DNA of 64,000 bases from Candidatus Niyogibacteria bacterium. GTDB lineage: Bacteria; Patescibacteriota; Minisyncoccia; HO2-45-28. Below are positions 1,195 through 51,145 of the stretch, piece after piece. Where the stretch lies: contig CP066691.1 in the NCBI GenBank assembly GCA_016432485.1, forward strand, positions 77,466 to 141,465, read 5' to 3'. Made by a program: the position numbers and the translations under genes. The notes under the pieces were generated by a model. It was not told the DNA's origin and searched no databases. It saw only the letters and a program-made list of their open reading frames with translations. Position 1 is the first letter of the stretch; each line of letters begins with the position of its first letter.

Positions 1195-1320
1195 GATTTA
1201 ATAAAATCCCTTAACCCCCTTACTCCCATTTTCTCCCCTTAATCCCTTTTATCCCCTTACCCCCATTTTACTTCCCATTTTCCCCCTTTAGTCCCCCTCA
1301 CCCCTTTTACCGCAGTTGTT
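1195..1320. repeat. Degenerate ~9-10 nt periodic C/T-rich tract (plus strand almost G-free; minus strand carries >=11 runs of G3-G5 separated by A-rich spacers), G-quadruplex-capable
   Basis: Read directly: ttaaccccct tactcccatt ttctcccctt aatccctttt atccccttac ccccatttta cttcccattt tcccccttta gtccccctca cccc. The minus strand reads GGGGTAAAAGGGGTGAGGGGGACTAAAGGGGGAAAATGGG…. Confidence 0.7.
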
Positions 1321-1337: not shown

Positions 1338-1375
1338 ACAACATTCTAACATTCTCAAGAATGTTGGAATGTTGT
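1338..1375. promoter_or_regulatory. 18-bp near-perfect inverted repeat (acaacattctaacattct / agaatgttggaatgttgt) with 2-nt spacer
   Basis: Seen in sequence. Lies in the intergenic region between the deacylase gene and the RM operon. Possible operator or cruciform. Confidence 0.5.
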
Positions 1376-1481
1376 AGGGCGGGGTTTTAGGTTGAAATCA
1401 GGCCAAAAATGCGGGAAAGTAAGGGGAAGATGAGTAAGTCATTCACGATTTATCCAAGGGGGACATCCGGCCTCCCAGAAA

Positions 1482-1511
1482 CCAAAATACCGCTTTCGGG
1501 CGGTATTTTGG
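1482..1511. terminator. 12-bp perfect stem hairpin (ccaaaataccgc-tttcgg-gcggtattttgg) followed by ttt; terminator or attenuator-like
   Basis: Seen in sequence. The short U-tract makes the terminator assignment tentative. Confidence 0.35.
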
Positions 1512-1548
1512 TTTATAATCCCAAATCAGCAATATTTAATAAGCATAT

Positions 1549-1584
1549 TTGACTTGCACCATATTGATGCATTATGATTATAGC
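1549..1584 (+). promoter_or_regulatory. Putative sigma70-like promoter (TTGACT 1549-1554, ~17-18 nt spacer, TtATGAT/TATAGC -10 candidates) feeding a leaderless start at 1585
   Basis: Hexamers read directly. The ORF-track start at 1549 is a TTG that coincides with the -35 box. Confidence 0.3.
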
Positions 1585-1893
1585 ATGTCATTAGAAGAAA
1601 TATCGGGATACAAGGCAATAAAGCGTCTCGCCGTGGAGCGACCAGATTGGCTTCCCATCGTTCGGGAGTGTCTCGCTTTTACGAAAGAATATAAAGCCGA
1701 TTTTGCAGGAGCTTGGATATACCAGCGCTTGCAAGAAAAAGGTGGGCCAAGATTTTCAAATCTCCGCCTACTCGTTAGTTTCGGTATCTTGAAAAAAGAG
1801 GGCACTTCCCGCGCCGGCCGCCGCGCCTATTATTCGTTTGTTGATCCAGTGGGCGTTGAAGAAGCATTAAAAGAACTTTCTCAAGAAATATGA
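1585..1893 (+). CDS. Hypothetical small protein (about 102 aa), first gene of the RM/OLD operon
   Basis: ORF MSLEEISGYKAIKRLAVERPDWLPIVRECLAF…; the first ATG after the putative promoter; its stop overlaps the next start (ATATGA at 1888-1893). No family recognised. Confidence 0.45.
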   Translation: MSLEEISGYKAIKRLAVERPDWLPIVRECLAFTKEYKADFAGAWIYQRLQEKGGPRFSNLRLLVSFGILKKEGTSRAGRRAYYSFVDPVGVEEALKELSQEI

Positions 1894-2369
1894 AAACCAT
1901 TTTTGGGATTATTTTTTTAATAACGATTGGGATGACTGGTTGGTGGTTTGGTTTTTTTGATTTTGTGCCCAAAATCGGCACCCCCTTTGGCGACTTTGTC
2001 AAAAATAAAAGCGGAGAACAAAGTGCCGTGGTAATAATCCCCACAGATCCAATTGATATAGCAGATATCATTGAGAGGATAGAAAACGGCAAGACGGATG
2101 AAGAAGTACAAGATTTGTTGGATATTTATAAAGACACTTTGGTAATGGGGGATGGCAAATATTCAAATAAATGGAGGTCTAATGAGAACGAGGGCCCCAA
2201 AATTGGGATAAAAGTTAACGGTAGAACAGTAAAATGTAATTTTAATCCAGATTGGCAAAAAAGAATTGAGCTGTCGCAATTGGGCGATACTATAAATTTT
2301 TTGGGAACATTCCGTTTTATTGAATCTTGGGGGCGATACTATGTAGAAGATTGTTCCTTAACCAAATAA
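1890..2369 (+). CDS. Hypothetical membrane-anchored protein (N-terminal TM helix, 159 aa)
   Basis: ORF MKTIFGIIFLITIGMTGWWFGFF…; translationally coupled to its neighbours. No recognisable domain. Confidence 0.45.
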   Translation: MKTIFGIIFLITIGMTGWWFGFFDFVPKIGTPFGDFVKNKSGEQSAVVIIPTDPIDIADIIERIENGKTDEEVQDLLDIYKDTLVMGDGKYSNKWRSNENEGPKIGIKVNGRTVKCNFNPDWQKRIELSQLGDTINFLGTFRFIESWGRYYVEDCSLTK

Positions 2370-2377
2370 ATATTTTC

Positions 2378-4642
2378 ATGGAACTATCAGACAACGAAAA
2401 AAGAGATATCGTGAAATATTTGGAAGCGGGAAAACCGCTTCCGGAAAAGTATCGTTTTTTGCTTTTTGATGATGATAGAGAAGTTGAGTTACTTTGGAAT
2501 GGTAAGACAAATGAGGTAACGAATGTTGTCTTACCTTTTCAAGTTATTGAGCAAATAGACGAGCCGAGGAGCGACGCAAAATTTGGCAATCAAAATTCTC
2601 TTTTTGACACCTCGGGACGACAAATAACCGGATGGACGAATAAATTGATTTGGGGAGACAATAAATTGATTCTCTCATCTCTTAAAAATGGACCGCTTCG
2701 CAAAGAAATAGAAGCGCAGGGCGGTTTGAAATTGATTTATATTGACCCGCCGTTTGATGTTGGGGCGGACTTTTCTATGGATATAAAAATTGGTGATGGT
2801 GAGGATGAAGAAAGTTTTACAAAAAAACCGTCAGTGATAGAAGAAATTGCCTATCGCGACACTTGGGGCAAAGGTGCGGATAGTTTTATTGCGATGATTT
2901 ATGAGCGATTGAAACTCATGCACGATTTGCTTGCCGCAGACGGAAGTATTTATGTGCATTGTGACTGGAGAGTGAATAGCTATATGAGGTTAGTTTTAGA
3001 TGAGATTTTTGGTAAGGATAACTTTAGAAATGAAATTGTTTGGAAAAGAACATACTCAACAAAAGCACAGAGTGTTGGTTATGGTAAAACGCATGAGCTT
3101 ATTTTGTTTTACGCAAAAAGTGAGACTACTAAATTAAAGCAACTTTACCAAAAACCAGCTGATGATTATGTAGATAAATATTTTAATAAAACAGATGAGA
3201 ATGGCAAAAAGTACCAATCTTTGAGTTTGACTCAGCAAGGACAGGGTCCCGCTAGATTTTTTGGGGACAGACTAATTGAACCACCCAATGGGATGCATTG
3301 GATTTGGGGGCAAGACCGAATAACAAAAGCTTTTCAGGAAGGTAGAATAGTTTTTACAAAAAACAATTTTCCGAGACTTAAGAAATATCTTGAAGAATGG
3401 AATGAACAAGGTCGTCCGGTTGATGGACTTTGGGTTGATGATGAAGTTGGACCATTAAACTCCTGGCACGGGGAATCGCTGGATTACCCTACACAAAAAC
3501 CGGAGTCAATGCTTGGGCGTATAATTCAATCCTCTTCAAATGAAGGCGATCTTGTTGCTGATTTCTTCTGCGGTTCGGGGACAACGCTTGCGGTTGCTGA
3601 AAAACTCGGCAGAAAATGGATTGGCTCTGACTTGGGGAAATTTGGCATACATACATCACGAAAGAGAATGATTGGCGTACAGCGAGAATTGAAAAAGGAA
3701 AGCAAAAATTTCAGGGCTTTTGAAATCTTAAATGTTGGTAGATACGAAAGAGAAAATTTCCTCGCGACAAATAACGACTTGCGAGCGGAAGAGAAATCAA
3801 AACAAGCCGATAGAAAAGAAAAAGAATTTGTAAAACTCATTCTCTCTGCGTACAAAGCGGAGCCGGTGGAATCTTTTGTAAATGTTATCGGCAAGAAAAG
3901 AGATCGACTTGTGGCGGTGGGACCCATCGATACTCCGGTTTCCTCAAAACTGGTGCAGGACATTGTAAACGAGTGTATAGAAAAAGGAATAACTAAAATT
4001 GATGTGCTTGGTTTCGATTATGAAATGGGGCTTGATTTTTCCCAGTATAAAGATCAGGGCATTGATATTGCTTTCAGAATAATTCCGAGAGAAGTTTTTG
4101 ACAGAAAAGCGGTAGAAAAGGGTCAAGTGAAGTTTTATGATGTGGCGTTTATTGAAGCGAAGCCGATTATCAAAGGGAGGGGAAGCGAAAAAGAAATTTC
4201 TATCGAACTTACCGACTTTTCCGTTTTCTACAATCAAGATGATTCCGGTGAAATAGCCGAGGCGCTTCGGCCCGGTGGTTCTAAGGTTGTAGTGGAAGAT
4301 GGACAAGTGGTGAAAATCACTAAAGACAAGAAAACTGAAGAAATTTCAAAAGAAGTTTTGACTAAAAAATGGAGCGACTGGATTGATTATTGGGCGGTGG
4401 ATTTTGATTTTGCAAGCAGAAAAGAAATCATCAAAATAATTGAGGATGGTGAAGAAAAAGAAGTTTGGACTGGCGACTATATTTTCGACAACGAATGGCA
4501 GAGTTTCCGCACGAAAAAGAACAGAAATCTTGACCTCGTCACTCCTCCCAAGGTGGCTACAAAAGGCAAGCATAAAATAGCCGTAAAGGTCGTGGATATT
4601 TTCGGAAATGACACGACAAAGGTAATAGAAGTAAATATATGA
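2378..4642 (+). CDS. mod: Type III-like restriction-modification methyltransferase (Mod; beta-class N6-adenine/N4-cytosine MTase)
   Basis: Motif IV LIYIDPPFDVGADF comes before motif I DFFCGSGTT, and FRNEIVWKR is present. This order is the beta-class arrangement used by Type III Mod. Start taken at MELSDNEKRD (ATG 2378) after the stop of the upstream ORF. Confidence 0.8.
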   Translation: MELSDNEKRDIVKYLEAGKPLPEKYRFLLFDDDREVELLWNGKTNEVTNVVLPFQVIEQIDEPRSDAKFGNQNSLFDTSGRQITGWTNKLIWGDNKLILSSLKNGPLRKEIEAQGGLKLIYIDPPFDVGADFSMDIKIGDGEDEESFTKKPSVIEEIAYRDTWGKGADSFIAMIYERLKLMHDLLAADGSIYVHCDWRVNSYMRLVLDEIFGKDNFRNEIVWKRTYSTKAQSVGYGKTHELILFYAKSETTKLKQLYQKPADDYVDKYFNKTDENGKKYQSLSLTQQGQGPARFFGDRLIEPPNGMHWIWGQDRITKAFQEGRIVFTKNNFPRLKKYLEEWNEQGRPVDGLWVDDEVGPLNSWHGESLDYPTQKPESMLGRIIQSSSNEGDLVADFFCGSGTTLAVAEKLGRKWIGSDLGKFGIHTSRKRMIGVQRELKKESKNFRAFEILNVGRYERENFLATNNDLRAEEKSKQADRKEKEFVKLILSAYKAEPVESFVNVIGKKRDRLVAVGPIDTPVSSKLVQDIVNECIEKGITKIDVLGFDYEMGLDFSQYKDQGIDIAFRIIPREVFDRKAVEKGQVKFYDVAFIEAKPIIKGRGSEKEISIELTDFSVFYNQDDSGEIAEALRPGGSKVVVEDGQVVKITKDKKTEEISKEVLTKKWSDWIDYWAVDFDFASRKEIIKIIEDGEEKEVWTGDYIFDNEWQSFRTKKNRNLDLVTPPKVATKGKHKIAVKVVDIFGNDTTKVIEVNI

Positions 4643-6288
4643 AGTTTATAAAAAAAATAGAGATTCATTCTTTTAGGTCATGTGAAAATATGCACATTGA
4701 AAATTGTGAAAATTTTAATGTTTTTTTGGGTCTCAACAATTCTGGCAAATCAAATATTCTACGTGCTTTAAATTTATTTTTTAACGGAGAAATTGAGCCG
4801 GGTTTCAAATTTCTTTTGGAAAGAGATGGTAATTTCCCTCCCAAGAAACGTAAAAAGAAAGAAGTTGAAATTAGTATTACTTTTGATACAAGAGAATTAA
4901 AAAAATTACCCCAGTTTAAAAAGGCTGTTGGAAACATTGTTGATGATTATGTAATTACAAAAGTATGGGGTTACCAAGGTTTTTCTGAGGGCCTAATTGT
5001 TGCTAAAGGAAAAGACCAGCTTGATAAGGCCCAAAACCTTCTAAAATTTATAAGATTTCGATATTTAGTTGCTCATCGAGACCCTGCAAAAATCATTATA
5101 GAATCAGAAAAGCGTATACGAAAGGAACTACTTAGAAGGTTTAATTCACGTATTAAAAAGTCGCAAATTTCTGGAGGACAAAATTCCATTACCGAGGTTT
5201 TAAAAATTCTCGAAGATGCTTCAAAGTCATTAATTGACCCAATCGCACTACCCGTTAAAAGCTTATCACCGGAAGTTAAAGACCTTATCCTTTTAACACC
5301 TAAAACATTTCAAGATCTAGTTATTTCCTTGGGATACGCCGTTCAATTAAAAAATGAAAAAATGATTTCCGAAGAATTACAGGGGTCAGGCTTCCAAAGC
5401 CATTTAATGTTTAGAGTTTTGTACTTTGCGGATACGGCGTATAGTTTAGATTTTGGTTGGAAAGGTATAACAATTTGGGCTATCGAAGAACCGGAATCTT
5501 TTCTCCATAAAAATTTAGAGATAGAATTAGGGAAATTTTTTAATGAAATTTCTGAAAAATTTCGTATACAAATTTTTTGCACGACACATAGTGATGTTTT
5601 CCCTCAATATGCAAAAATGTCTTATTTAGCAAAATTTGATGATCTAAAATACTCTCAACTACAATACGATGTATCAAAAAAAATTATTCATGAGTCCTCA
5701 AAATTGGGTATTTCTTCGTTTGTTCATACACTACATTTTCAACAGGGAGTGCCACTTGTTTTAGTAGAGGGTAAAACTGACAAGAAAGTTGTGAATAAAA
5801 CCTTAGAACTTTTAGGTGATGCTGAATTTTTCAGTATTTTTGATAATTTTGATTTGAATCTAGACTCTGGTGGTGTTTCTCAATTATTAAAATATTTACA
5901 AAACAACAAGTTAGTTATTGATAGTAGACAAAAACCCTTTTATATTATTTTAGATTGGAATGAAGAGAATAAAACAGTTAATCAATTTAAAAAGATTAGT
6001 AAAAATATTTTTCCATATAAGTTTGACGAGTCAAAATGTAATCCAAATCTTGACAATAGTTTTAGTGGTATAGAAAGATATTTAACAACAGACTTTATTA
6101 AGAATCCTGCAACAGAAAAGACATTTTCGTATCAAACTGATTCTGTAAATTCTTCTATTTTGTCAATGAAAAAGAGAGTATTGGACGATAATAAAGTTTT
6201 TTTAGCTGATTATTTTGTGAAAAATGCTAGTAAATTGGATTTAAAATTTTTAGAACCAGAAATTAAGAAAGCTTTACACTTAAGTTAA
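4639..6288 (+). CDS. OLD-family ATP-dependent endonuclease-like protein (N-terminal ABC-type ATPase, C-terminal Toprim-like domain)
   Basis: Walker A GLNNSGKSNILRAL, Walker B/D-loop ITIWAIEEPESFLH, H-loop CTTHSD, and a C-terminal PLVLVEGKTDKKVV Toprim-like EGxxD motif. Its ATG overlaps the mod stop (ATATGA). Very AT-rich. Confidence 0.6.
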   Translation: MKFIKKIEIHSFRSCENMHIENCENFNVFLGLNNSGKSNILRALNLFFNGEIEPGFKFLLERDGNFPPKKRKKKEVEISITFDTRELKKLPQFKKAVGNIVDDYVITKVWGYQGFSEGLIVAKGKDQLDKAQNLLKFIRFRYLVAHRDPAKIIIESEKRIRKELLRRFNSRIKKSQISGGQNSITEVLKILEDASKSLIDPIALPVKSLSPEVKDLILLTPKTFQDLVISLGYAVQLKNEKMISEELQGSGFQSHLMFRVLYFADTAYSLDFGWKGITIWAIEEPESFLHKNLEIELGKFFNEISEKFRIQIFCTTHSDVFPQYAKMSYLAKFDDLKYSQLQYDVSKKIIHESSKLGISSFVHTLHFQQGVPLVLVEGKTDKKVVNKTLELLGDAEFFSIFDNFDLNLDSGGVSQLLKYLQNNKLVIDSRQKPFYIILDWNEENKTVNQFKKISKNIFPYKFDESKCNPNLDNSFSGIERYLTTDFIKNPATEKTFSYQTDSVNSSILSMKKRVLDDNKVFLADYFVKNASKLDLKFLEPEIKKALHLS

Positions 6289-6295
6289 AAAGTTT

Positions 6296-8989
6296 ATGGC
6301 ACTACATAAAGACTTTCCAAAAAACCCATACGCGATACTTGACCCGAATATTCGGTGGTTTCCTGCTGACGAAGATTTGCGGGAAAAAGGAGCTATTCAA
6401 AAACTTTTACCTCCTCTTGTCGCGGGTTTGCGGGAAAAAGTAAAAGAATGGCGAGATAAAAATTACGAGGGGGCAAGTAATACTTCTAAATCACTTTTGA
6501 ACTGGTGGTTCAAGGAGGAACATATTTTATATGACCAACACGGAGTATCTTCTCATTTCAAATACTATTTCGCGCAAAGAGAAGCGCTGGAAACAGTCGT
6601 ATGGCTTTATGAGGTGGCGAAAGTAAAAGATAAATACGACCTCATTCGTTACAACTCTACCGGCGTATTAAGTCCGCAAATGTTTACTGAAGAGTGGCTT
6701 CGCTTTGTGATAAAAATGGCGACTGGTGCGGGTAAGACCAAAGTAATGAGTCTAGTTGTCGCATGGGCGTATTTTCATAAAAAGTATGAGGAAGGTTCAA
6801 ATTTGGCAAAGAACTTTCTTTTAATAACGCCGAATGTCATTGTTTTTGAAAGAATAAAGAATGATTTTGAAGGATTGAAGATATTTTTTAGCGATCCTGT
6901 TTTGCCGGATAACGGCTATCACGGACAAAACTGGCAGGATGATTTTCAGATGACTCTGCATTTACAGGATGATTTGCGCAATGTTTCTGACACTGGAAAT
7001 ATATTTTTGACTAACATCCACAGAGTTTTTGAGGGTGATGTGCGCGAAGCGAGTGCAGAAGATGAGGACACTTCTCGATACTTCTTAGGCGATAAACCAG
7101 TCACAAAAACAAGCGACTCTACTGTGGATTTGGGGATGATAGTAAGAGATATCGACGAGCTTATTGTAATCAATGATGAAGCTCACCATTTGCACGATGA
7201 TAAATCAGCTTGGGTTAAATCAATTACCGACATAGACAATCGGCTTAAACAGAAAGGCGCGGGGCTATCTTTACAGCTTGACTTTACGGCTACACCAAAA
7301 AAGAACGATGGCTCCATTTTTGTGCAAACAATTTCCGACTATCCGCTTGTTGAGGCAATTCACCAAAGAGTTGTTAAAAATCCGGTTGTGCCGGACGCGG
7401 CAAGCCGAGGAAAACTGAAAGAAAATCAAAACACACTATTTAGCGAGAGATACCGAGATTATATAAATCTTGGTATTGAAGAATGGAAAAAAACATACGA
7501 AGTATTAAAACCGATGGGTAAAAAATCCATTCTTTTTATTATGACAGACGATACAAGGAATTGTGATGAGGTGGCGGAGTATATTGAAACAAGTTTTAAA
7601 GAGTTGAAAGGGGCAGTTTTGACTATACACACAAACAAGAGCGGAGAAATTTCTGAAAGTGTGTCCGGTAAAAGTAAAGAGGAATTGGATGTGCTTCGCA
7701 AACAAGCGAATGAAATTGATAGTTGGGAAAGCCCGTTCAAAGTAATTATTTCCGTAATGATGTTGAAAGAGGGTTGGGATGTAAAAAATGTAACGACAAT
7801 CGTCGGGCTACGACCTTTCGCAGCCGATTCAAAAATTCTGCCCGAACAAACTCTCGGACGAGGACTCCGTAGGATGTTTTTTGGCAGAGATGATGTTGAG
7901 GAATATGTGAGTGTTGTCGGAACTCCCGCTTTTATGGACTTTGTTGAATCAATCAAGGGCGAGGGCGTTATTCTTGAAAAGAAAGCGATGGGAACGGGAG
8001 CCAAGCCGATAGCTCCGATGGTTATTGAGGTTGATAAGGATAATCCGAAAAAGGACATTGAGAAGCTTGATATTGAGATTCCGGTGATGTCCCCTAGAAT
8101 TCAGAGGGAGTATAAAAACCTAGCCGAGCTGGATGTTTCCAAATTTGGGAATAAAAAGGTCAAAGTAAAAACATTCTCCGAAGAAGAAAAACGAGAAATC
8201 GTGTTTAAGGATGTTGTTGATGAAAAAATCCATCACACAACGATACTTTCTGGCGACATTGAACCTGATTATCAAAGCGTTATCGGATTTTTTGCGCAGG
8301 CAATAATGCGAGAACTACGGCTTTTTGGTTGCTACGATATTTTATTCGGCAAGGTAAGAGAGTTTGTGCAAAATAATATGTTTGACAGTCCCGTGAATTT
8401 ATCAGACCTCAATACTCTGCGAAATTTATCCGAGGTGGAGTATATACGGCTTATAAAAGATTCTTTCAAGAAAGCCATTAACGATCTTACAGTCGAAGAC
8501 AAAGGAGACACAGAGATAAAGAACTACATCAAAATTAGCGAAGCACGTCCTTTTGTCGTTAATGATAAATCGTATTTAATACCCAAAAAGTCTGTTTTCA
8601 ATAAGATTGTTGGCGATAGCGATTTTGAGCTAGTATTTTCTGATTTTCTCGAAAATTGTGATGATGCGATTTCTTTCGCAAAGAATTTTCAAAATAAAGA
8701 AGCGAGCGCGCTTAGAATTGAGTATAAAAATTCGGAAGGATTTATTGCTACCTACTACCCCGATTTCTTTGTTAAGAAAGATGAAAAAACGGTTTATATT
8801 ATTGAAACGAAAGGACGAGAAGAAGATGACGACAAGCTAAAATTTGAAAGACTGCAAAAGTGGTGTGAGGATGTAAATGATCGACAAAATCGGGTCGTCT
8901 ATAAAGCACTTTATATCAAACAAGAAGAATGGAAAAAAGATAAATTCAAGAATTTTGATGAGGTTGTTAGGGTGTTTGATTTAAAATAA
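6296..8989 (+). CDS. res: Type III restriction enzyme Res subunit (SF2 DEAH helicase fused to a C-terminal PD-(D/E)XK nuclease)
   Basis: Walker A MATGAGKTKV, DEAH box VINDEAHHL, motif VI QTLGRGLRR, and a C-terminal nuclease motif YYPDFFVKKDEKTVYIIETKGRE. Confidence 0.85.
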   Translation: MALHKDFPKNPYAILDPNIRWFPADEDLREKGAIQKLLPPLVAGLREKVKEWRDKNYEGASNTSKSLLNWWFKEEHILYDQHGVSSHFKYYFAQREALETVVWLYEVAKVKDKYDLIRYNSTGVLSPQMFTEEWLRFVIKMATGAGKTKVMSLVVAWAYFHKKYEEGSNLAKNFLLITPNVIVFERIKNDFEGLKIFFSDPVLPDNGYHGQNWQDDFQMTLHLQDDLRNVSDTGNIFLTNIHRVFEGDVREASAEDEDTSRYFLGDKPVTKTSDSTVDLGMIVRDIDELIVINDEAHHLHDDKSAWVKSITDIDNRLKQKGAGLSLQLDFTATPKKNDGSIFVQTISDYPLVEAIHQRVVKNPVVPDAASRGKLKENQNTLFSERYRDYINLGIEEWKKTYEVLKPMGKKSILFIMTDDTRNCDEVAEYIETSFKELKGAVLTIHTNKSGEISESVSGKSKEELDVLRKQANEIDSWESPFKVIISVMMLKEGWDVKNVTTIVGLRPFAADSKILPEQTLGRGLRRMFFGRDDVEEYVSVVGTPAFMDFVESIKGEGVILEKKAMGTGAKPIAPMVIEVDKDNPKKDIEKLDIEIPVMSPRIQREYKNLAELDVSKFGNKKVKVKTFSEEEKREIVFKDVVDEKIHHTTILSGDIEPDYQSVIGFFAQAIMRELRLFGCYDILFGKVREFVQNNMFDSPVNLSDLNTLRNLSEVEYIRLIKDSFKKAINDLTVEDKGDTEIKNYIKISEARPFVVNDKSYLIPKKSVFNKIVGDSDFELVFSDFLENCDDAISFAKNFQNKEASALRIEYKNSEGFIATYYPDFFVKKDEKTVYIIETKGREEDDDKLKFERLQKWCEDVNDRQNRVVYKALYIKQEEWKKDKFKNFDEVVRVFDLK

Positions 8990-9031
8990 TTTATGGAACC
9001 CTGGCCAACAAAAAATTAAAAAAATAAATTT

Positions 9032-10264
9032 ATGCCAAAACAAAAGGAGATGTTGAATTTATTCAAGAAAATCAAGGCGGAATTTTTGGGGAAGAAAATC
9101 CTTTTGGTCGGCCTTGGATTGCAGGGCGGGGGAGAGGGTGTTGCGAAATTTCTTTTGAAAGCCGGATCTAAACTCACCATCACGGATTTACGTCCGAAAA
9201 AGGATTTCACCCGATTTTTAAAAAAGTTTGCCAAAAAAAGGGTAAAATTTATCTTCGGGCGTCATCGTTTTTCGGATTTTAAAGCATCCGATATCATCAT
9301 TAAAAATCCCGCCGTCTCCGAGGCCTCGCCTTTCATAAAATACGCCAGAAAAATCGGCAAGCCCGTTTTGACCGAAACCCAAATTTTTTTTGACCTCGTC
9401 CCCAGAGAAAAAATAATCGGCGTCACCGGCACCAAAGGCAAGACCACGACGGCCATGCTTCTGACACACCTGCTTAAAAGCCGTTTTAAAGTTGAACTGG
9501 TGGGAAATATTCCGGGGCGCTCGGCGCTTGAATCGCTTGCAGGTCTAAAAAAATTTCCCGACTTTTTTGTCTACGAACTTTCGAGTTTCAATCTGGAGGG
9601 GCTTCGCGTAAGCCCCAAATACGCGATTATCATCAACATTTTTCCCGACCATCTGAATCGTTATAAAAGTTTTAATGAATACAAAAAAGTTAAAAGCAAC
9701 ATTTTTAAATATCAAAAAAGGGGAGATTTTTTATGGTTTGAAAGAAAAAACAGCTTTTCTTCGGACATCGCCGGGAAAGTCGCCCTGTCTTTCGGGATAA
9801 GCGATAGAGAGGTAAAAAAACGCCTGAAATCCTTTAAGCCGGCCGAGGGACGCCTGGAGAATCTAGGAAAAATAAAAGGAGCGCTCCTGATAAACGATAC
9901 CACCTCCACTAACCCCGGCGCTACTCTTTTTGGCATAGCTCAAATTCAGAAACGCCTTAAGATTAAATCCCGGCGCGTTATTTTGATTGCCGGAGGAGAA
10001 AATAAAAAACTCAAATACGGCGAATTTTCAAAAAAAATCAAAGGGTTGAAGAAAGTTATTTTGATCCCTGGTTCCGCTTCAGACCTTATAAAAGGCAAGA
10101 ATATCTTGCGTGTTAAAACTCTTAAAGATGCGGTTAAAAAAGCGTTTGAAATCGCCAAGAAAGGAGATTCAATACTTTTTTCTCCCGCCTCCGCAAGTTT
10201 TAACGCTTTTAAAAATGAGTTTGAGCGCGGACGAGCTTTCAAAAAAATCGTAAAATCCCTATAA
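9032..10264 (+). CDS. murD: UDP-N-acetylmuramoylalanine--D-glutamate ligase
   Basis: GVTGTKGKTTTAML motif. Sits in the murD-ftsW-murG order. Confidence 0.85.
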   Translation: MPKQKEMLNLFKKIKAEFLGKKILLVGLGLQGGGEGVAKFLLKAGSKLTITDLRPKKDFTRFLKKFAKKRVKFIFGRHRFSDFKASDIIIKNPAVSEASPFIKYARKIGKPVLTETQIFFDLVPREKIIGVTGTKGKTTTAMLLTHLLKSRFKVELVGNIPGRSALESLAGLKKFPDFFVYELSSFNLEGLRVSPKYAIIINIFPDHLNRYKSFNEYKKVKSNIFKYQKRGDFLWFERKNSFSSDIAGKVALSFGISDREVKKRLKSFKPAEGRLENLGKIKGALLINDTTSTNPGATLFGIAQIQKRLKIKSRRVILIAGGENKKLKYGEFSKKIKGLKKVILIPGSASDLIKGKNILRVKTLKDAVKKAFEIAKKGDSILFSPASASFNAFKNEFERGRAFKKIVKSL

Positions 10265-39570: not shown

Positions 39571-39641
39571 TGGACCGTGGGAGAATCGAACTCCCGTCTC
39601 CCGGATGCAAACCGGGTGCATTGCCACTGTGCTAACGGCCC
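39571..39641 (-). tRNA. tRNA-Ala (anticodon TGC)
   Basis: Minus strand: GGGCCGT-TA-GCAC…TGCA-CCCGG-TTTGCAT-CCGGG-AGAC-GGGAG-TTCGATT-CTCCC-ACGGTCC-A. It has the G3:U70 Ala identity pair and the UGC anticodon. No encoded CCA. Confidence 0.8.
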
Positions 39642-44673: not shown

Positions 44674-44747
44674 GCGGCTATAGCTCAGTTGGTTAGAGCG
44701 CGTCACTGATAATGACGAGGTCCTTGGTTCGAGTCCAAGTAGCCGCA
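44674..44747 (+). tRNA. tRNA-Ile (anticodon GAT)
   Basis: GCGGCTA-TA-GCTC-AGTTGGTTA-GAGC-G-CGTCA-CTGATAA-TGACG-AGGTC-CTTGG-TTCGAGT-CCAAG-TAGCCGC-A. A perfect cloverleaf. Confidence 0.9.
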
Positions 44748-44780
44748 CTAAATGTAGAGCAAATTTTTGGTACGGGGCAA

Positions 44781-48140: not shown

Positions 48141-49122
48141 GGTATTATGGTCTAATATCTTTTCAAATATTTAGCCATGCACCACTGGGCAAGCAGTTTT
48201 CCTGCACCCTAGCGGTTTTCGTAGGTTCGGGCTTTTTTGCCTCGAGCCCTGATTTCTTCGCGTATTTTGATAATTTTCTTAAATCCTTTGTCCGTTAAAT
48301 GCTCTTTCTGTTTTACTTTCAAAACAATTGTTTTGAATCTTTTGTAGACCTCCGCCTTTTTTGCCTGTAAAGGACATTTATCAAGAAACGGAAAAAGAAA
48401 TTCTGTTAAATCCTTGTTGTTTGTAATTTTATATTTTACATGCGGATACCATCCATACCTTTCGTATGAAAGATCATAAATTCGTCCGCACCCAATTGTG
48501 ATTAAGATTCGTTCCAATATTTCTCTGTCATCGGCCCGAACTTCTATTTCAAACTCCGGCCTTATTTCAAGGCCGCGTTTAAGAGTTTTGTGTCTGCCAA
48601 TGCTTACTGAAAACGATCCCTCACCGTCAATAAAACCCGCAACATAGTTAGGATCAAGTTTTTTCCTACGAATTCGTTCCTTCCCAAACGGCGCTTTTAA
48701 TAAGCAGTTTTTGTGGTCGTCATTTTCAGACGACTTTCGTTTGGTACTACGAACTTTGCTGACTTCTTGCGTTGTTTTTGGACGATTGCTCGTTTTCATA
48801 CCTCGAGGTTATTATACCACGAGGACAACGCAAGATCTCCCACGGTAACCCATATATCTGTGTGTATCTATCTCGATGCCACTACACGCGTTATGCATTT
48901 TTTGCGGCGGGATTCTTCCTGTACTCGAGGAATCTCCCGCATAACGCGCCACAAACTGGCATTCAAGCTAAATACTGCTAATTTCACCCTTCGCCACGGC
49001 TCCTCGCGGAGACGGGCTGTGATTTTGCTTCGTTTCTACCGCAAAGAAACGGCTGGACTTCCGAGCGCATAAAACGTTATGTGCTTCGGTCACCAGCTAG
49101 ATACACGGATCGCATGGCGACC
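48141..49122 (-). mobile_element. ~1 kb intron in 16S (E. coli position ~1390-1400) encoding a LAGLIDADG homing endonuclease; probable group I intron
   Basis: The conserved GTACAC|ACCGCCCGTC block is split by ~980 nt containing a sense-strand ORF. Confidence 0.75.
48209..48799 (-). CDS. LAGLIDADG homing endonuclease (intron-encoded)
   Basis: YVAGFIDGEGSF motif. Same strand as the rRNA. Confidence 0.8.
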   Translation of the reverse strand: MKTSNRPKTTQEVSKVRSTKRKSSENDDHKNCLLKAPFGKERIRRKKLDPNYVAGFIDGEGSFSVSIGRHKTLKRGLEIRPEFEIEVRADDREILERILITIGCGRIYDLSYERYGWYPHVKYKITNNKDLTEFLFPFLDKCPLQAKKAEVYKRFKTIVLKVKQKEHLTDKGFKKIIKIREEIRARGKKARTYENR

Positions 49123-49630
49123 CGAGTACAAGACTCGAGAACGTATTCACCGCGGCGTTCTGATCCGCGATTACTAGCGATTCCGGCTTCACGAGGTCAG
49201 GTTGCAGACCTCGATCCGAATTGGGGCCGGCTTTGATGGGATTAGCTCCGCCTTACGGCTTGGCGACCCTTTGAACCGGCCATTGTAGCACGTGTGTAGC
49301 CCAGGGCATCAGAGGGCCATGCTGACTTGGCGTCATCCCCACCTTCCTCCCCGCCCTCTAAGCTCTACTTTAAATCCTCTTTACAAACTTATTGTGTTGA
49401 AGATTTACAACGACCGACGCGGTCATTGTTAAAGCATAGAGGGCGGGGCAGTTTCGCCTGACATATATAACAGGCAATGGGGGTTGCGCTCGTTACCCCA
49501 CTGAAGGGAACAACTCAAGCCACGAGCTGACGACAGCCATGCAGCGCCTGTCCAGCCGTCCTTGTGAGAAAACCTGCCTTTCGGCAAATTGTCGTCTGGA
49601 TTTCAAGCCCTGGTGAGGTTCTTCGCTTAC

Positions 49631-49665
<35 letters not shown>

Positions 49666-49676
49666 AGTCCCCGTCT

Positions 49677-49718
<42 letters not shown>

Positions 49719-49813
49719 GAGGCTTAACGCGTTAGCTTCGACACTCAAAGGGTCGATACTTCGAATATCTAGCCTCCATCGTTTAGGGCGCGGAGTACAA
49801 GGGTATCTACATC

Positions 49814-50200
49814 ATTGTTACTTAAACCGAACTTATTAATCATCGGTTAAGGAGCGAACATTTCTGCCGCTCTCTCCGTGTTACCACGAAGATCGGACTA
49901 TATCATCCCGCCAACATCTATAAAGTTGTGGCGGGCTCGGCGTATAGTCTCTACGGGGTTACTGGAAACTTATACTTGTATTTAGGCAATATATATTTTT
50001 TAACTGCAAACCACAATTTTTTAATTATCGTATATTTGCCATAAACACACGTATAAGTTTCCAGAACTTCCCTCGGTATTTTCCGTTTTTTAAAAACGGA
50101 TTTCTACCGATATAGCCGAGTTTGCATTCCATTGTCGCCAATGGAAGGGACTAGCAGCCAACTTTAATTATATCAATAAAGTTGGATACCCATGCCAATC
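49814..50200 (-). mobile_element. ~390-nt ORF-less intervening sequence in 16S (E. coli position ~790-800); probable intron
   Basis: GGGTATCTAATCC…CGCTTTCG is interrupted. No ORF longer than 60 aa on the rRNA strand. Confidence 0.55.
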
Positions 50201-51042
50201 CTTTTCCATACCCGCGCTTTCGTGTTTCAGAGTCAGGAACGCGCCAGTAGACTGCCTTCGCCTTTGGTGTTCCCCTGGATATCAATGGATTTCACTCCTA
50301 CACCCAGAGTTCCGTCTACCTCTCGCGTCCTCCGAGTTCAATGGTATCCCCTGCATTTTCGCCGTTGGGCGGCGATATTTAACAAAAGACTCATTAAACC
50401 TCCTACACACCCTTTACGCCCAGTAAATCCGGATAACGCTTGGGCTCCTCGTATTACCGCGGCTGCTGGCACGAGGTTAGCAAGCCCTTATTCATGGGAT
50501 ACTGTCACTTGCGTTCATCTCCCATAAAAGCAGTTTACGTCCCGAAGGATTTCTTCCTGCACGCGGCGTCGCTCGATCAGGCTTTCGCCCATTGTCGAAT
50601 ATTCTCGACTGCTGCCACCCGTAGGTGTATGGCCCGTGTCGCAGTGCCATTGGTGGGGGGCGAGCTCTCACTCCCCCTAGCCGTCATAGCCTTGGTAGGC
50701 TTTTACCCTGCCAACAAGCTGATAGCCCGCAGACCTTTCCCAGAGCGTCTTACGACTTTACCCTCACGGGAACTATCGGGAATTAGCCCCGCTTTCGCGG
50801 GGTTATGCCCGTCTCTGGGGTAAGTATCTACGTATTACTACCCCGTCTGCCACTCGCCAACGCTTCGCGTTGGAAGCACGAAATCCTAAATCCGAAATAC
50901 GAAACAAACTCAAAATTACAATACTCAAATTCCAAATGTTTTTAGTTTAGAATTTCGAGTTTGGATATTGTTTCGGATTTCGATATTCGAATTTCGAATT
51001 TCCAGTGCGAAGCACTGGCTCGTACGACTTGCATGCCTTATC

Positions 51043-51145
<103 letters not shown>

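Follow-up and report, generated by a model that had tools for sequence, protein, structure and literature searches.

A putative OLD-family nuclease gene carried as an exchangeable cassette in a Type III restriction-modification locus of Candidatus Niyogibacteria

Results

Five chained genes on one strand

The window, the whole stretch of DNA analysed here, comprises 64,000 nucleotides of contig CP066691.1. Within it we confirmed five co-oriented ORFs at 1585-8989, flanked by an amidohydrolase-family gene and a gene for a MurD-like ligase:

1585..1893, + strand: ORF1, 102 aa, predicted winged-helix protein and putative controller of operon transcription
1890..2369, + strand: ORF2, 159 aa, predicted N-terminal membrane anchor
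2378..4642, + strand: Mod, Type III beta-class N6/N4 DNA methyltransferase, 754 aa
4639..6288, + strand: embedded OLD-family nuclease gene (ATPase gene), 549 aa
6296..8989, + strand: Res, Type III restriction subunit, 897 aa

ORF1 and ORF2, as well as Mod and the ATPase gene, are joined by ATATGA stop/start overlaps (1888-1893 and 4637-4642, respectively). Given a Mod start at ATG 2378, which corrects an earlier call at TTG 2327, ORF2 and Mod are separated by 8 nt, and the gap between the ATPase gene and Res is 7 nt. The five genes and their chaining were therefore as the initial annotation had described them. A search for internal terminators in the chain found none that was convincing, and we infer that the five genes are co-transcribed as an operon.

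The block had been described as 30-35% GC. It is indeed poorer in GC than the remainder of the window (37.1% vs 44.0%), but only the ATPase gene falls within that range (29.8%, or 30%, against 46% for ORF1, 37% for ORF2 and 39% for both Mod and Res). Horizontal acquisition of the five-gene locus, proposed at the same time, is supported by GC below that of the genome and by cassette homologues in Elusimicrobia and other CPR bacteria.

A structured element and a conserved promoter precede ORF1

Four features lie upstream of the first start codon:

1206..1317, C-runs on the + strand (G-runs on the - strand): C-run tract, repeat family D1, roughly 9-nt periodic
1338..1375: inverted repeat I1, 18-nt arms, 2-nt loop, 94% complementary
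1479..1514: hairpin (repeat I4), perfect 15 bp, immediately 5' of the promoter
1549..1578, + strand: promoter module, TTGACT, 18-nt spacer, TATGAT

The tract, with 11 runs of at least three C per 120 nt, is the densest in the window and forms a portion of a strongly structured intergenic element (about 1200-1520), in which it pairs with a G-rich segment at ~1400-1440 (RNA fold, z = -7.3). An Rfam search of the element matched no family. Both boundary features noted originally, a G-run tract and a long inverted repeat, are present, although the former reads as C-runs on the + strand. The hairpin at 1479-1514 was also seen in the RNA fold and looks like a terminator or insulator.

The promoter module scored 10/12 matches in a consensus scan. 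The ORF1 ATG lies 6 nt past the -10 hexamer, suggesting that the ORF1 mRNA is probably leaderless. Eight different genomic contexts keep the pattern TTGAC-N17/18-TATGAT-N5-7-ATG 5' of their ORF1 homologue, and upstream conservation among these homologues starts exactly at the -35 hexamer. The start of ORF1 had been placed at TTG 1549; because this TTG is the -35 hexamer of the conserved promoter, and NCBI likewise calls a 102-aa product, ATG 1585 is most likely the true start.

ORF1 and ORF2 also occur apart from this locus

No match to ORF1 was found among Pfam, PADLOC, NCBIfam and PHROG profiles. Its homologues (n=37, 71-85% identity) all belong to CPR bacteria, and the family comprises 188 clusters at 50% identity. 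The AF2 model (pLDDT 88) gave fold matches that are weak by E-value (about 0.02); the top 50 in the PDB were all winged-helix-turn-helix regulators, e.g. PadR and ArsR/SmtB. First listed as an anonymous small protein, ORF1 is thus a predicted winged-helix protein that leads an R-M-type operon in 8/8 contexts examined. Since these operons span Types I, II, IIG and III across CPR bacteria, we regard ORF1 as a candidate analogue of controller proteins, with a putative regulatory function. The R-M locus lacks ORF1 in its Elusimicrobia and L177 forms. Large serine recombinases adjoin ORF1 in some loci, a neighbourhood that would instead suit a factor for excision or directionality.

ORF2 is the membrane-anchored member of the two small proteins, as initially proposed, and appears to be an accessory protein; its N-terminus is hydrophobic (KD 1.82 over residues 4-22). 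All six homologues share the hydrophobic N-terminus and two conserved Cys. A homologue precedes a near-identical Mod in the related loci L177-179, the only other lineage in which ORF2 accompanies this R-M pair. It also occurs in unrelated loci, among them ones with the order HigB-M78 peptidase-ORF2 homologue-Beta_protein.

Mod and Res form a Type III pair

Profile matches and intact motifs agree with the Type III identities first assigned to Mod and Res:

2744-2755: Mod, DPPF motif
3125-3484: Mod, variable target-recognition region
3566-3586: Mod, FCGSGTT motif
6719-6739: Res, SF2 helicase motif ATGAGKT
7172-7189: Res, SF2 helicase motif DEAH
7286-7297: Res, SF2 helicase motif TATP
7844-7873: Res, SF2 helicase motif VI
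8753-8767: Res, C-terminal PD-(D/E)xK nuclease, YYPDF
8798-8815: Res, C-terminal PD-(D/E)xK nuclease, IIETKG

Mod matched Pfam N6_N4_Mtase (4e-44) and PADLOC MTase_III (8e-113), and outside residues 250-369, the recognition domain, it is 86% identical to the L177 Mod. Res matched ResIII (1e-17) and PADLOC REase_III (8e-20), and also the NCBIfam BPTD_3080-family REase at 5e-80, a score under that model's cutoff. Res shares 95% identity with its L177 counterpart and 59% with that of an Aminobacter plasmid, and its helicase and nuclease motifs are invariant among 8 homologues. Judged by sequence, Mod and Res are an intact Type III R-M pair.

The gene between Mod and Res encodes a predicted OLD-family nuclease

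An OLD-like ABC-ATPase/Toprim protein had been proposed for the middle gene, and profiles, motifs and predicted fold agree on this assignment. The motifs are:

4729-4752: Walker A
5377-5400: signature-like motif
5476-5499: Walker B
5578-5592: H-loop
5761-5787: Toprim, LVEGKTD
5947-5961: Toprim, ILDWN
6064-6081: Toprim, GIE

ATPase homology came from Pfam (AAA_15, 1e-21; AAA_21, 2e-13) and PADLOC (AriA/GajA/Old, 1e-17 to 1e-21), and Toprim homology from a match of the C-terminal profile to the Toprim protein 1t6t (2.6e-4). Against the PDB, the profile found GajA (3.5e-17) and TsOLD (9e-17), the alignment reaching through the first Toprim strand, and in Foldseek the AF2 model (pLDDT 86.7) matched GajA, TsOLD and the retron-Eco8 OLD over the full length. 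Across 32 homologues, Walker A, Walker B and H-loop do not vary. The Toprim residues E377, D381, D439 and E479 are likewise invariant and correspond, by their order and spacing, to E377, D381, D431 and E480, the metal ligands of TsOLD (PMC7049728). In the Toprim DxD motif, Asn (N441) takes the place of the second Asp, at a position that varies across the family, so the nuclease chemistry could be altered. The protein is presumably an active nuclease.

The OLD gene is exchanged as a cassette

The initial annotation treated the five genes as one candidate composite system. The neighbourhoods of relatives argue against a fixed set: OLD does recur in R-M contexts, but the mod-OLD-res arrangement is not constant, and ORF1 and ORF2 are found without it. 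In L177-179 the same R-M pair (Res 95%, Mod 86%) carries a SLFN_AlbA_2+HATPase_c_4 gene in the slot instead of OLD; at the nucleotide level, homology ends precisely with the ATGA at 4639-4642 and returns with the Res ATG at 6296. Mod and Res simply abut in L125, L154 and L036, and in cultured relatives such as the Aminobacter plasmid, where they overlap by 1 nt. The closest OLD relatives (47-76% identity) lie inside or adjoining Type I, II and III R-M operons, including Type I HsdMS-X-HsdR (L090, 72%), Type II EcoRI-like MTase-X-REase_II (L007, 70%), Type II MTase-REase-X (L004, 47%) and Type III Mod-X-DUF3800-Res (Elusimicrobia, 60%). GC of the OLD gene is 30-32% in 5/5 contexts, each time lower than its neighbours. 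Because the slot content is swapped, Mod and Res abut elsewhere and relatives sit in Type I, II and III systems, the OLD gene is, on these comparisons, no fixed third subunit but a cassette that is portable between R-M systems and nests in them.

In the wider OLD family (~30% identity), the genes directly adjoining OLD are often components of R-M systems: HsdS is the upstream neighbour in 7/68 cases; downstream lie an N6_N4 MTase (4/59), an HsdR N-terminus (3/59) or DUF1156 (5/59). For most of these members, phmmer detected neither a Mod-like nor a Res-like gene at a distance of up to 10 kb. One Elusimicrobia MAG carries a Res homologue cut short near residue 500, indicating that a working R-M system is not always part of the association.

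Discussion

We favour, with a probability of roughly 0.55, a horizontally acquired Type III R-M operon, its Mod bearing an exchangeable recognition domain, in which an ORF-precise OLD insert provides a second, autonomous defence layer and ORF1 exerts control. The OLD gene would have entered exactly at the junction of Mod stop and Res start, sharing a transcript with the R-M genes, its translation coupled to Mod through the ATGA overlap. OLD would act on its own and not as a subunit of the restriction enzyme: an ATP-regulated ABC dimer may sense a sign of infection, for which aberrant DNA ends or anti-restriction activity would be plausible, and license the Toprim nuclease, which would destroy nucleic acid and abort infection once restriction fails. 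Both this abortive or back-up role and its trigger are conjectural. The conserved promoter would drive the operon, probably with a leaderless mRNA for ORF1, and ORF1 may autoregulate or time R-M expression, as the C proteins of Type II systems do. Guardians and embedded ABC-ATPase nucleases have precedents in PrrC, PARIS and HEC-04 (bioRxiv 10.1101/2024.01.29.577857; PMC12707154). Recurrent embedding of OLD could also stem from co-transfer, or from a "genomic sink", with no functional link between the genes.

OLD could instead partner the host R-M system by degrading restriction-made DNA ends, like E. coli RecBCD, which would render inefficient Type III cleavage lethal to phage in reduced-genome bacteria. 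In vitro, P2 Old and TsOLD digest linear dsDNA as non-specific exonucleases with 5'-3' polarity (PMC10568477; PMC7049728), and an end-acting activity would account for non-homologous Type I, II and III partners. We nevertheless hold this unlikely, as the identical slot can carry a non-nuclease gene (AlbA_2/HATPase_c_4) and many family members lack a nearby R-M system. Quite unlikely, too, is a latch of the PrrC type, with OLD held inactive by Mod/Res until a phage anti-restriction protein inhibits the complex and frees it. The position of OLD is that of prrC, it has an ABC-ATPase N-domain as PrrC does, and guardians of R-M are an established concept (PMC12707154). However, relatives at 60-72% identity pair with unrelated HsdMS/HsdR or with an EcoRI-like MTase and Type II REase, so a specific protein-protein latch would be hard to maintain, and the nuclease domain is Toprim where PrrC has a HEPN anticodon nuclease.

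Cassette-like exchange with ORF-precise boundaries, and a low GC retained in every host context, would also suit a cassette that, as with the AlbA_2 and DUF3800 genes, rides along as a passenger, whether selfish or neutral, and plays no part in phage defence in this host, the Mod/Res junction serving as a safe, expressed landing site; insertion of mobile elements into R-M loci has long been noted (PMC2632904). We think such a passenger, and such a landing site, decidedly improbable, since homologues as distant as 28% identity retain every catalytic residue of the ATPase and most of those of the Toprim domain, which points to purifying selection on OLD activity. Moreover, defence has been demonstrated for the embedded ABC-ATPase/Toprim fusion HEC-04 (bioRxiv 10.1101/2024.01.29.577857) and for OLD-family proteins (PMC12392090). 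Tight chaining, a single conserved promoter and the lack of a convincing internal terminator would fit one defence machine that needs all five proteins. This is very improbable: the full set does not co-occur elsewhere, the Elusimicrobia locus has neither ORF1 nor ORF2, L177 has neither ORF1 nor OLD, and both OLD and ORF1 are found with other R-M types.

The favoured reading, of a second layer inside an R-M operon, can be set against known systems. Like canonical Type III loci (EcoP15I-like mod-res), this one has mod before res, a beta-class Mod with a central variable recognition domain, and a Res combining an SF2 helicase with a C-terminal PD-(D/E)xK motif. It differs in that a foreign gene of 1.65 kb parts mod from res, two extra genes lie 5' of mod, and Res is nearest the BPTD_3080 family yet under its cutoff. 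ORF1 resembles the C proteins C.PvuII and C.AhdI as a small predicted DNA-binding protein encoded first in the operon, tightly coupled to the next gene and starting a few nt past the -10, which implies a leaderless mRNA; C genes often have leaderless transcripts (PMC2632904). In contrast, C proteins have an Xre/lambda-repressor-type HTH and belong to Type II systems, whereas ORF1 is predicted to be winged-helix (PadR/ArsR-like), has no profile-library match and precedes Type I, II, IIG and III operons.

The OLD protein resembles Class 1 OLD (P2 Old, Thermus scotoductus OLD; PDB 6P74): it is a single ~550-aa polypeptide without a UvrD-like, reverse-transcriptase or AriB partner, with full-length fold and profile matches and parallel Toprim acidic residues. 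Identity to TsOLD is only about 15%, N441 replaces the second Asp of DxD, and this clade, unlike Class 1 OLD, is embedded in R-M operons. The analogy to PrrC (EcoprrI Type Ic R-M locus; also RloC), raised in the initial annotation, holds for placement of an ABC-ATPase-nuclease between modification/specificity and restriction genes and for the proposed back-up role after restriction is defeated, but not for the protein family: the effector is Toprim here and HEPN in PrrC. PrrC is found almost only in Type I systems (bioRxiv 10.1101/2024.01.29.577857), whereas members of the OLD clade accompany Types I, II and III. In HEC-04, Walker A or Toprim metal-site mutations abolish defence (bioRxiv 10.1101/2024.01.29.577857); a PADLOC search of the OLD protein ranked AriA, GajA and Old best, with no HEC-04 model above E ~2e-10. 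Type III R-M lay outside the survey of embedded defence genes by Payne et al., whose scope was Hma, BREX, DISARM and Type I R-M (bioRxiv 10.1101/2024.01.29.577857). The embedding of one defence in another is already published, mod-OLD-res is not an already-named system, and the locus adds a fresh example of defence genes nesting in other defence systems.

A five-gene block upstream of murD

The initial annotation had claimed a chained five-gene operon. All five plus-strand ORFs are present, between an amidohydrolase-family gene and a MurD-like ligase gene, and they are chained as described, by ATATGA stop/start overlaps at 1888-1893 and 4637-4642 and by gaps of 7-8 nt elsewhere. The locus is arranged as follows:

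34-1164, amidohydrolase-family gene, upstream flank of the block
1338-1375, inverted repeat with 18-nt arms
1479-1514, perfect 15-bp terminator-like hairpin
1585-1893, plus strand, ORF1
1890-2369, plus strand, ORF2
2378-4642, plus strand, Mod
4639-6288, plus strand, OLD-family ATPase gene
6296-8989, plus strand, Res
9032-10264, MurD-like ligase gene, downstream flank and first gene of the murD-ftsW-murG run

Two of the gene starts required correction. ORF1 was placed at ATG 1585 instead of TTG 1549, since that TTG belongs to the -35 hexamer of a conserved promoter, and the start of Mod was corrected to ATG 2378. The block is of lower GC than the rest of the window, as had been noticed (37.1% vs 44.0%); the estimate of 30-35% is true of the ATPase gene only (29.8%), Mod, Res and ORF2 having 37-39% and ORF1 46%. 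The G-run tract reported upstream is a C-run tract on the plus strand (1206-1317), followed by the inverted repeat that had also been reported. Folding of the intergenic region 1200-1520 pairs the C-run tract with a G-rich segment around the 18-bp hairpin, with the 15-bp hairpin downstream, at a predicted minimum free energy of -105 kcal/mol (z = -7.3 vs shuffles). An Rfam scan of this region assigned it to no family, yielding sub-threshold chance matches to miRNA and sRNA models only. A second copy of the element is absent from the rest of the window and from every fetched locus; of the upstream intergenic region, only the ORF1 promoter has counterparts in the fetched loci. Direct repeats of at least 10 nt do not flank the island, hence no att-like target duplication was found.

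The Res stop codon is separated from the murD start by 42 nt (8990-9031) without a terminator-like site, so transcription of the inserted operon may read through into the cell-wall genes murD-ftsW-murG. Elsewhere in the window we noticed a 16S rRNA gene of 2,077 nt (49012-51088, minus strand) with a group I intron at 49874-50189, as is typical for CPR bacteria (Patescibacteria), and near it tRNA-Ile (44674-44748) and tRNA-Ala (39571-39641).

The middle gene encodes a predicted OLD-family nuclease

The window belongs to a Candidatus Niyogibacteria (CPR/Patescibacteria) genome, and the product of the middle gene is 100% identical to a Niyogibacteria protein recorded at NCBI as 'AAA family ATPase'. 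Profile, motif and predicted fold all bore out the assignment of the middle gene as an OLD-like ATPase-Toprim protein. Its product matches AAA_15 (1e-21) and AAA_21 in Pfam and the AriA, GajA and Old models in PADLOC; weak matches to MADS3, PtuA and RecF (NCBIfam) were disregarded, being restricted to the P-loop region. Walker A (GLNNSGKS, residues 31-38), Walker B (WAIEEPES, 280-287) and the H-loop (TTHS, H317) do not vary among 32 homologues, pointing to an N-terminal ATPase of the ABC type. A profile built from these homologues matched the solved structures of GajA, the Gabija nuclease (3.5e-17), and TsOLD of Thermus scotoductus (9e-17), the GajA alignment extending through the first Toprim strand, LVEGKTD. 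A C-terminal profile of 205 residues matched the Toprim protein 1t6t (2.6e-4) across the EGxxD and DxD regions, and a weak Pfam match to DUF3226 (E 2.5e-4, below threshold) overlaps the Toprim-like region. E377, D381, D439 and E479 are invariant, whereas the second Asp of DxD is replaced by Asn441, a position variable in the family. The four invariant residues parallel in order and spacing the metal ligands E377, D381, D431 and E480 of TsOLD (PMC7049728). In addition, an AlphaFold2 model (pLDDT 86.7, pTM 0.83) gave as best full-length Foldseek matches in the PDB GajA (8e-17), TsOLD (9e-16) and the retron-Eco8 OLD protein (9e-16), and the predicted overall fold is thus like that of solved OLD proteins. 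The locus has no GajB, RT or AriB partner gene, which makes the OLD protein Class-1-like in composition.

Mod and Res form a Type III pair that looks functional

Methyltransferases of the beta class (N6/N4) have their motif IV (DPPY/F) ahead of motif I (FxGxG), with a central variable recognition domain. Mod, which matches N6_N4_Mtase (Pfam, 4e-44) and MTase_III (PADLOC, 8e-113), has DPPF at residues 123-126 ahead of FCGSGTT at 397-403. Residues 250-369 are non-homologous to the Mods of the metagenomic loci L177-179, which are elsewhere 86% identical. Judged from these features, Mod is a beta-class enzyme of the Type III kind. Res matches ResIII (Pfam) and REase_III (PADLOC), and, below cutoff, the BPTD_3080 restriction-endonuclease family of NCBIfam. 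In an alignment of 8 homologues the SF2 motifs ATGAGKT, DEAH, TATP and QxxGRGLR are invariant, as is a C-terminal PD-(D/E)xK nuclease motif (P822-D823...E837-x-K839), the marks of an SF2 helicase with a C-terminal endonuclease. From the profile matches, the beta-class motif order and the invariant Res motifs, both genes, which are intact, look functional and constitute a Type III-type pair. Such systems are distinguished by ATP-dependent cleavage that requires two inversely oriented unmethylated sites and by hemi-methylation by Mod.

The order and strand of mod and res are as expected of Type III, with the 1.65-kb OLD gene lying between them. In close and distant homologues mod and res abut: they overlap by 1 nt at the nearest cultured Res homologue (59%), on an Aminobacter plasmid, and more distant pairs abut as well (L125, L154 and L036). 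On this plasmid (NZ_AP017989.1, 32292-40979) Mod-Res is immediately preceded by genes for a SIR2-like protein, an ABC-3C middle-component-like protein (MComp1) and an ABC ATPase, a further ABC-ATPase system joined to the same R-M family.

OLD is an exchangeable insert at the Mod-Res junction

The five genes had been read as a candidate composite anti-phage system. A fixed composite was not borne out, as the same R-M system carries another gene in the slot of OLD. At L177-179, where Res is 95% identical and Mod 86% identical outside its recognition domain (residues 250-369), a 481-aa SLFN_AlbA_2+HATPase_c_4 gene replaces OLD (L177:10646-12091; weak PADLOC match to PDC-S50). The exchange is ORF-precise: nucleotide homology between the window and these loci ends at the Mod/insert ATGA and restarts at the Res ATG. 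A third arrangement is found in Elusimicrobia, where the order is Mod (55%), OLD (60%), DUF3800 and Res (65%), with an ATGA junction identical to that of the window; the DUF3800 gene in the slot (L001:11748-12473) has no PADLOC match. These data indicate that OLD is an exchangeable insert and not an R-M subunit. Both the SLFN_AlbA_2+HATPase_c_4 and the DUF3800 genes may have embedded defence or accessory roles.

In one Elusimicrobia metagenome-assembled genome Res is truncated at residue ~500-540 (L001:12602-14224), and in an Elusimicrobia-related contig from one sample Mod is split in two ORFs (L003:1960-4223). The OLD gene is intact where these R-M genes are damaged. The split Mod and truncated Res could reflect decay, phase variation or assembly error.

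ORF2 goes with the near-identical Mod-Res of L177-179 and is missing from the Elusimicrobia cassette. In all 6 homologues the N-terminus is hydrophobic, and the soluble domain, ~120 aa long and bearing two Cys, is conserved. In L172-174 (5465-8665) an ORF2 homologue follows genes for a HigB toxin and an M78 peptidase and precedes a Beta_protein gene (P4 gop/beta/cII-like), next to a gene of the Phage_P4_cII type; such surroundings, mobile or defence-related, differ greatly from those of the small membrane protein in the window.

Close relatives of OLD recur in R-M loci

The OLD-type gene is intact and conserved. Its close relatives have 47-76% identity, followed by a gap down to ~35%. In this close clade every distinct context is an R-M locus, and R-M contexts recur across types. 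The OLD gene has 30-32% GC in all of them, invariably under that of its neighbours.

R-M contexts of the close OLD clade (locus; identity to the window OLD; arrangement)
Window; 100%; Type III
Elusimicrobia; 60%; Type III
L090; 72%; Type I, HsdM/S fusion-OLD-HsdR
L007; 70%; Type II, EcoRI-like methylase-OLD-Type II REase (PADLOC 1e-137)
L004; 47%; Type II, MTase-Type II REase-OLD

In the wider family the immediate upstream neighbour is HsdS in 7/68 loci and ResIII in 5/68, and the downstream one is an N6_N4 MTase in 4/59, an HsdR N-terminus in 3/59 and DUF1156 in 5/59; by phmmer, a Mod- or Res-like gene is absent from most wider-family loci. Class 1 OLD genes have been described as single and not proximal to other defence genes (review, PMC10568477). 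The clade of the window OLD departs from this description, as one OLD subfamily that is habitually R-M-associated, contrary to the textbook stand-alone Class 1 OLD.

A phage origin was unsupported by scans of viral contigs, which gave 0 matches for the OLD clade and 1 weak partial match for ORF1; tblastn of OLD against plasmids gave a single weak partial match. As sole query in a metagenome scan the OLD protein retrieved nothing, whereas the clade alignment recovered relatives.

ORF1 is a putative winged-helix leader of CPR restriction operons

ORF1 has no match in Pfam, NCBIfam, PADLOC or PHROGs. Its 37 homologues (71-85% identity) come without exception from CPR bacteria, and an exhaustive search yielded 188 clusters at 50% identity. 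The predicted structure (pLDDT 88) matched winged-helix regulators only (PadR, ArsR/SmtB; probabilities 0.95-0.99, E-values ~0.02). In 8/8 contexts ORF1 heads an R-M-type operon and is closely coupled to the gene that follows.

Operons led by ORF1 (locus; system)
Window; Type III
L186; Type I HsdR-M-S
L183; Type II MTase+HinfI
L180; Type IIG
L175, L185, L187; DrmD-like SNF2 plus Type IIG
L169; large helicase

A promoter block, TTGAC-N17/18-TATGAT-N5-7-ATG, is kept in all eight contexts, and conservation begins exactly at the -35 hexamer. Since 5-7 nt separate the -10 hexamer from the ATG, the ORF1 mRNA is probably leaderless or nearly so.

Controller (C) proteins have an HTH of the Xre/lambda-repressor type, and are so far known only with this fold and only in Type II systems. 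Two hallmarks of the Type II controllers are a leaderless transcript and a place at the head of the operon (PMC2632904). ORF1 shares the first-gene position, the own promoter and, probably, the leaderless mRNA; in contrast to the Xre-type C proteins it is predicted to be a PadR/ArsR-like winged-helix protein, without homology to them. We therefore propose that ORF1 is a functional analogue of the C proteins without belonging to their family. The rival explanation, that ORF1 is an excision or directionality factor, draws on the large serine recombinase encoded divergently upstream of it in L185 and L186; L169 and L175 have one in the vicinity. In the window, L180 and L183 ORF1 occurs with the recombinase absent. 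As a separate observation, the ORF1-led R-M operons of L169-171, L175-176, L185 and L186 adjoin the divergently transcribed recombinase gene, and L169-171 and L175-176 also carry a ParB_N+N6_N4 methyltransferase fusion and a gene of ~236 aa. These loci look like small CPR integrative elements with restriction systems as cargo.

ORF1 is a highly conserved, unannotated protein that may control all restriction types in CPR bacteria, which to our knowledge are unculturable and almost unknown in their gene regulation.

A model for the operon and its relation to known systems

We suggest that the operon would be read as a single transcript from the promoter at 1549-1578, with translational coupling at both ATGA overlaps, and that OLD may act as an autonomous ATP-gated Toprim nuclease, a second layer once restriction has been evaded. 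Because the partners of OLD are promiscuous, a latch to one enzyme in the manner of PrrC is disfavoured; this promiscuity is compatible with sensing of a generic cue, in the way that PARIS and Gabija sense Ocr (Payne et al., bioRxiv 10.1101/2024.01.29.577857), or with action on DNA ends left by restriction. The rivals of an autonomous second layer are a latch of this kind, action on such DNA ends, and OLD as a pure hitchhiker. Whether OLD cooperates or rides is directly testable by cassette swap, because the same R-M system is found with different slot genes, a clean natural experiment.

A broader reading would be that ORF1 founds a new winged-helix family of R-M controllers and that the OLD clade accompanies R-M systems of any type as a companion nuclease. 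We hold this joint claim tentatively, at a probability of roughly 35%. If true, ORF1 and its portable leaderless promoter module would regulate CPR restriction systems whether of Type I, II, IIG or III, the Type III Mod-Res junction would be a dedicated exchange slot for companions (OLD, AlbA_2/HATPase_c_4, DUF3800), and OLD proteins would have a further genomic-context class beyond Classes 1-4.

The Mod-OLD-Res arrangement is no named system, and the concern that it might be an already-named one did not hold; Hma, Gabija, PARIS, retron-OLD and PrrC were each rejected for lack of a defining feature. In Gabija (Class 2, GajA+GajB) the partner of OLD is GajB, and here OLD is flanked by Mod and Res, with no UvrD/PcrA-like helicase gene in the window locus or in those of close homologues. 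AriA and AriB are separate in PARIS (Class 4), whereas ATPase and Toprim are fused here in a single 549-aa protein, of which the PADLOC AriA model matches N-terminal residues 4-137 only. A retron OLD (Class 3) was rejected as the locus has no RT gene, the Eco8 effector model of NCBIfam scores 49 vs a cutoff of 250, and the Rfam scan of the window revealed no retron RNA. The C-terminal domain is Toprim-like and not the HEPN anticodon nuclease of PrrC/RloC, neither of which has a model among the PADLOC matches listed. As for the three component models of Hma, Res matches the REase_III and mREase_IV models only in PADLOC, and the matches listed for Mod (to E ~4e-12) and the ATPase (to ~2e-10) include none of Hma. 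An unrelated SNF2 protein of L175 matches HmaA (PADLOC).

ABC-ATPase nucleases embedded in defence operons are already known from PrrC and HEC-04, and the survey of embedded genes covered Hma, BREX, DISARM and Type I R-M (Payne et al., bioRxiv 10.1101/2024.01.29.577857). In the literature searched we found no description of embedding between mod and res of Type III systems. What is most novel here is the natural exchange of cassettes between Mod and Res, together with the winged-helix leader gene found across CPR bacteria, and the principle of defence genes embedded in defence systems is extended to two-gene Type III systems.
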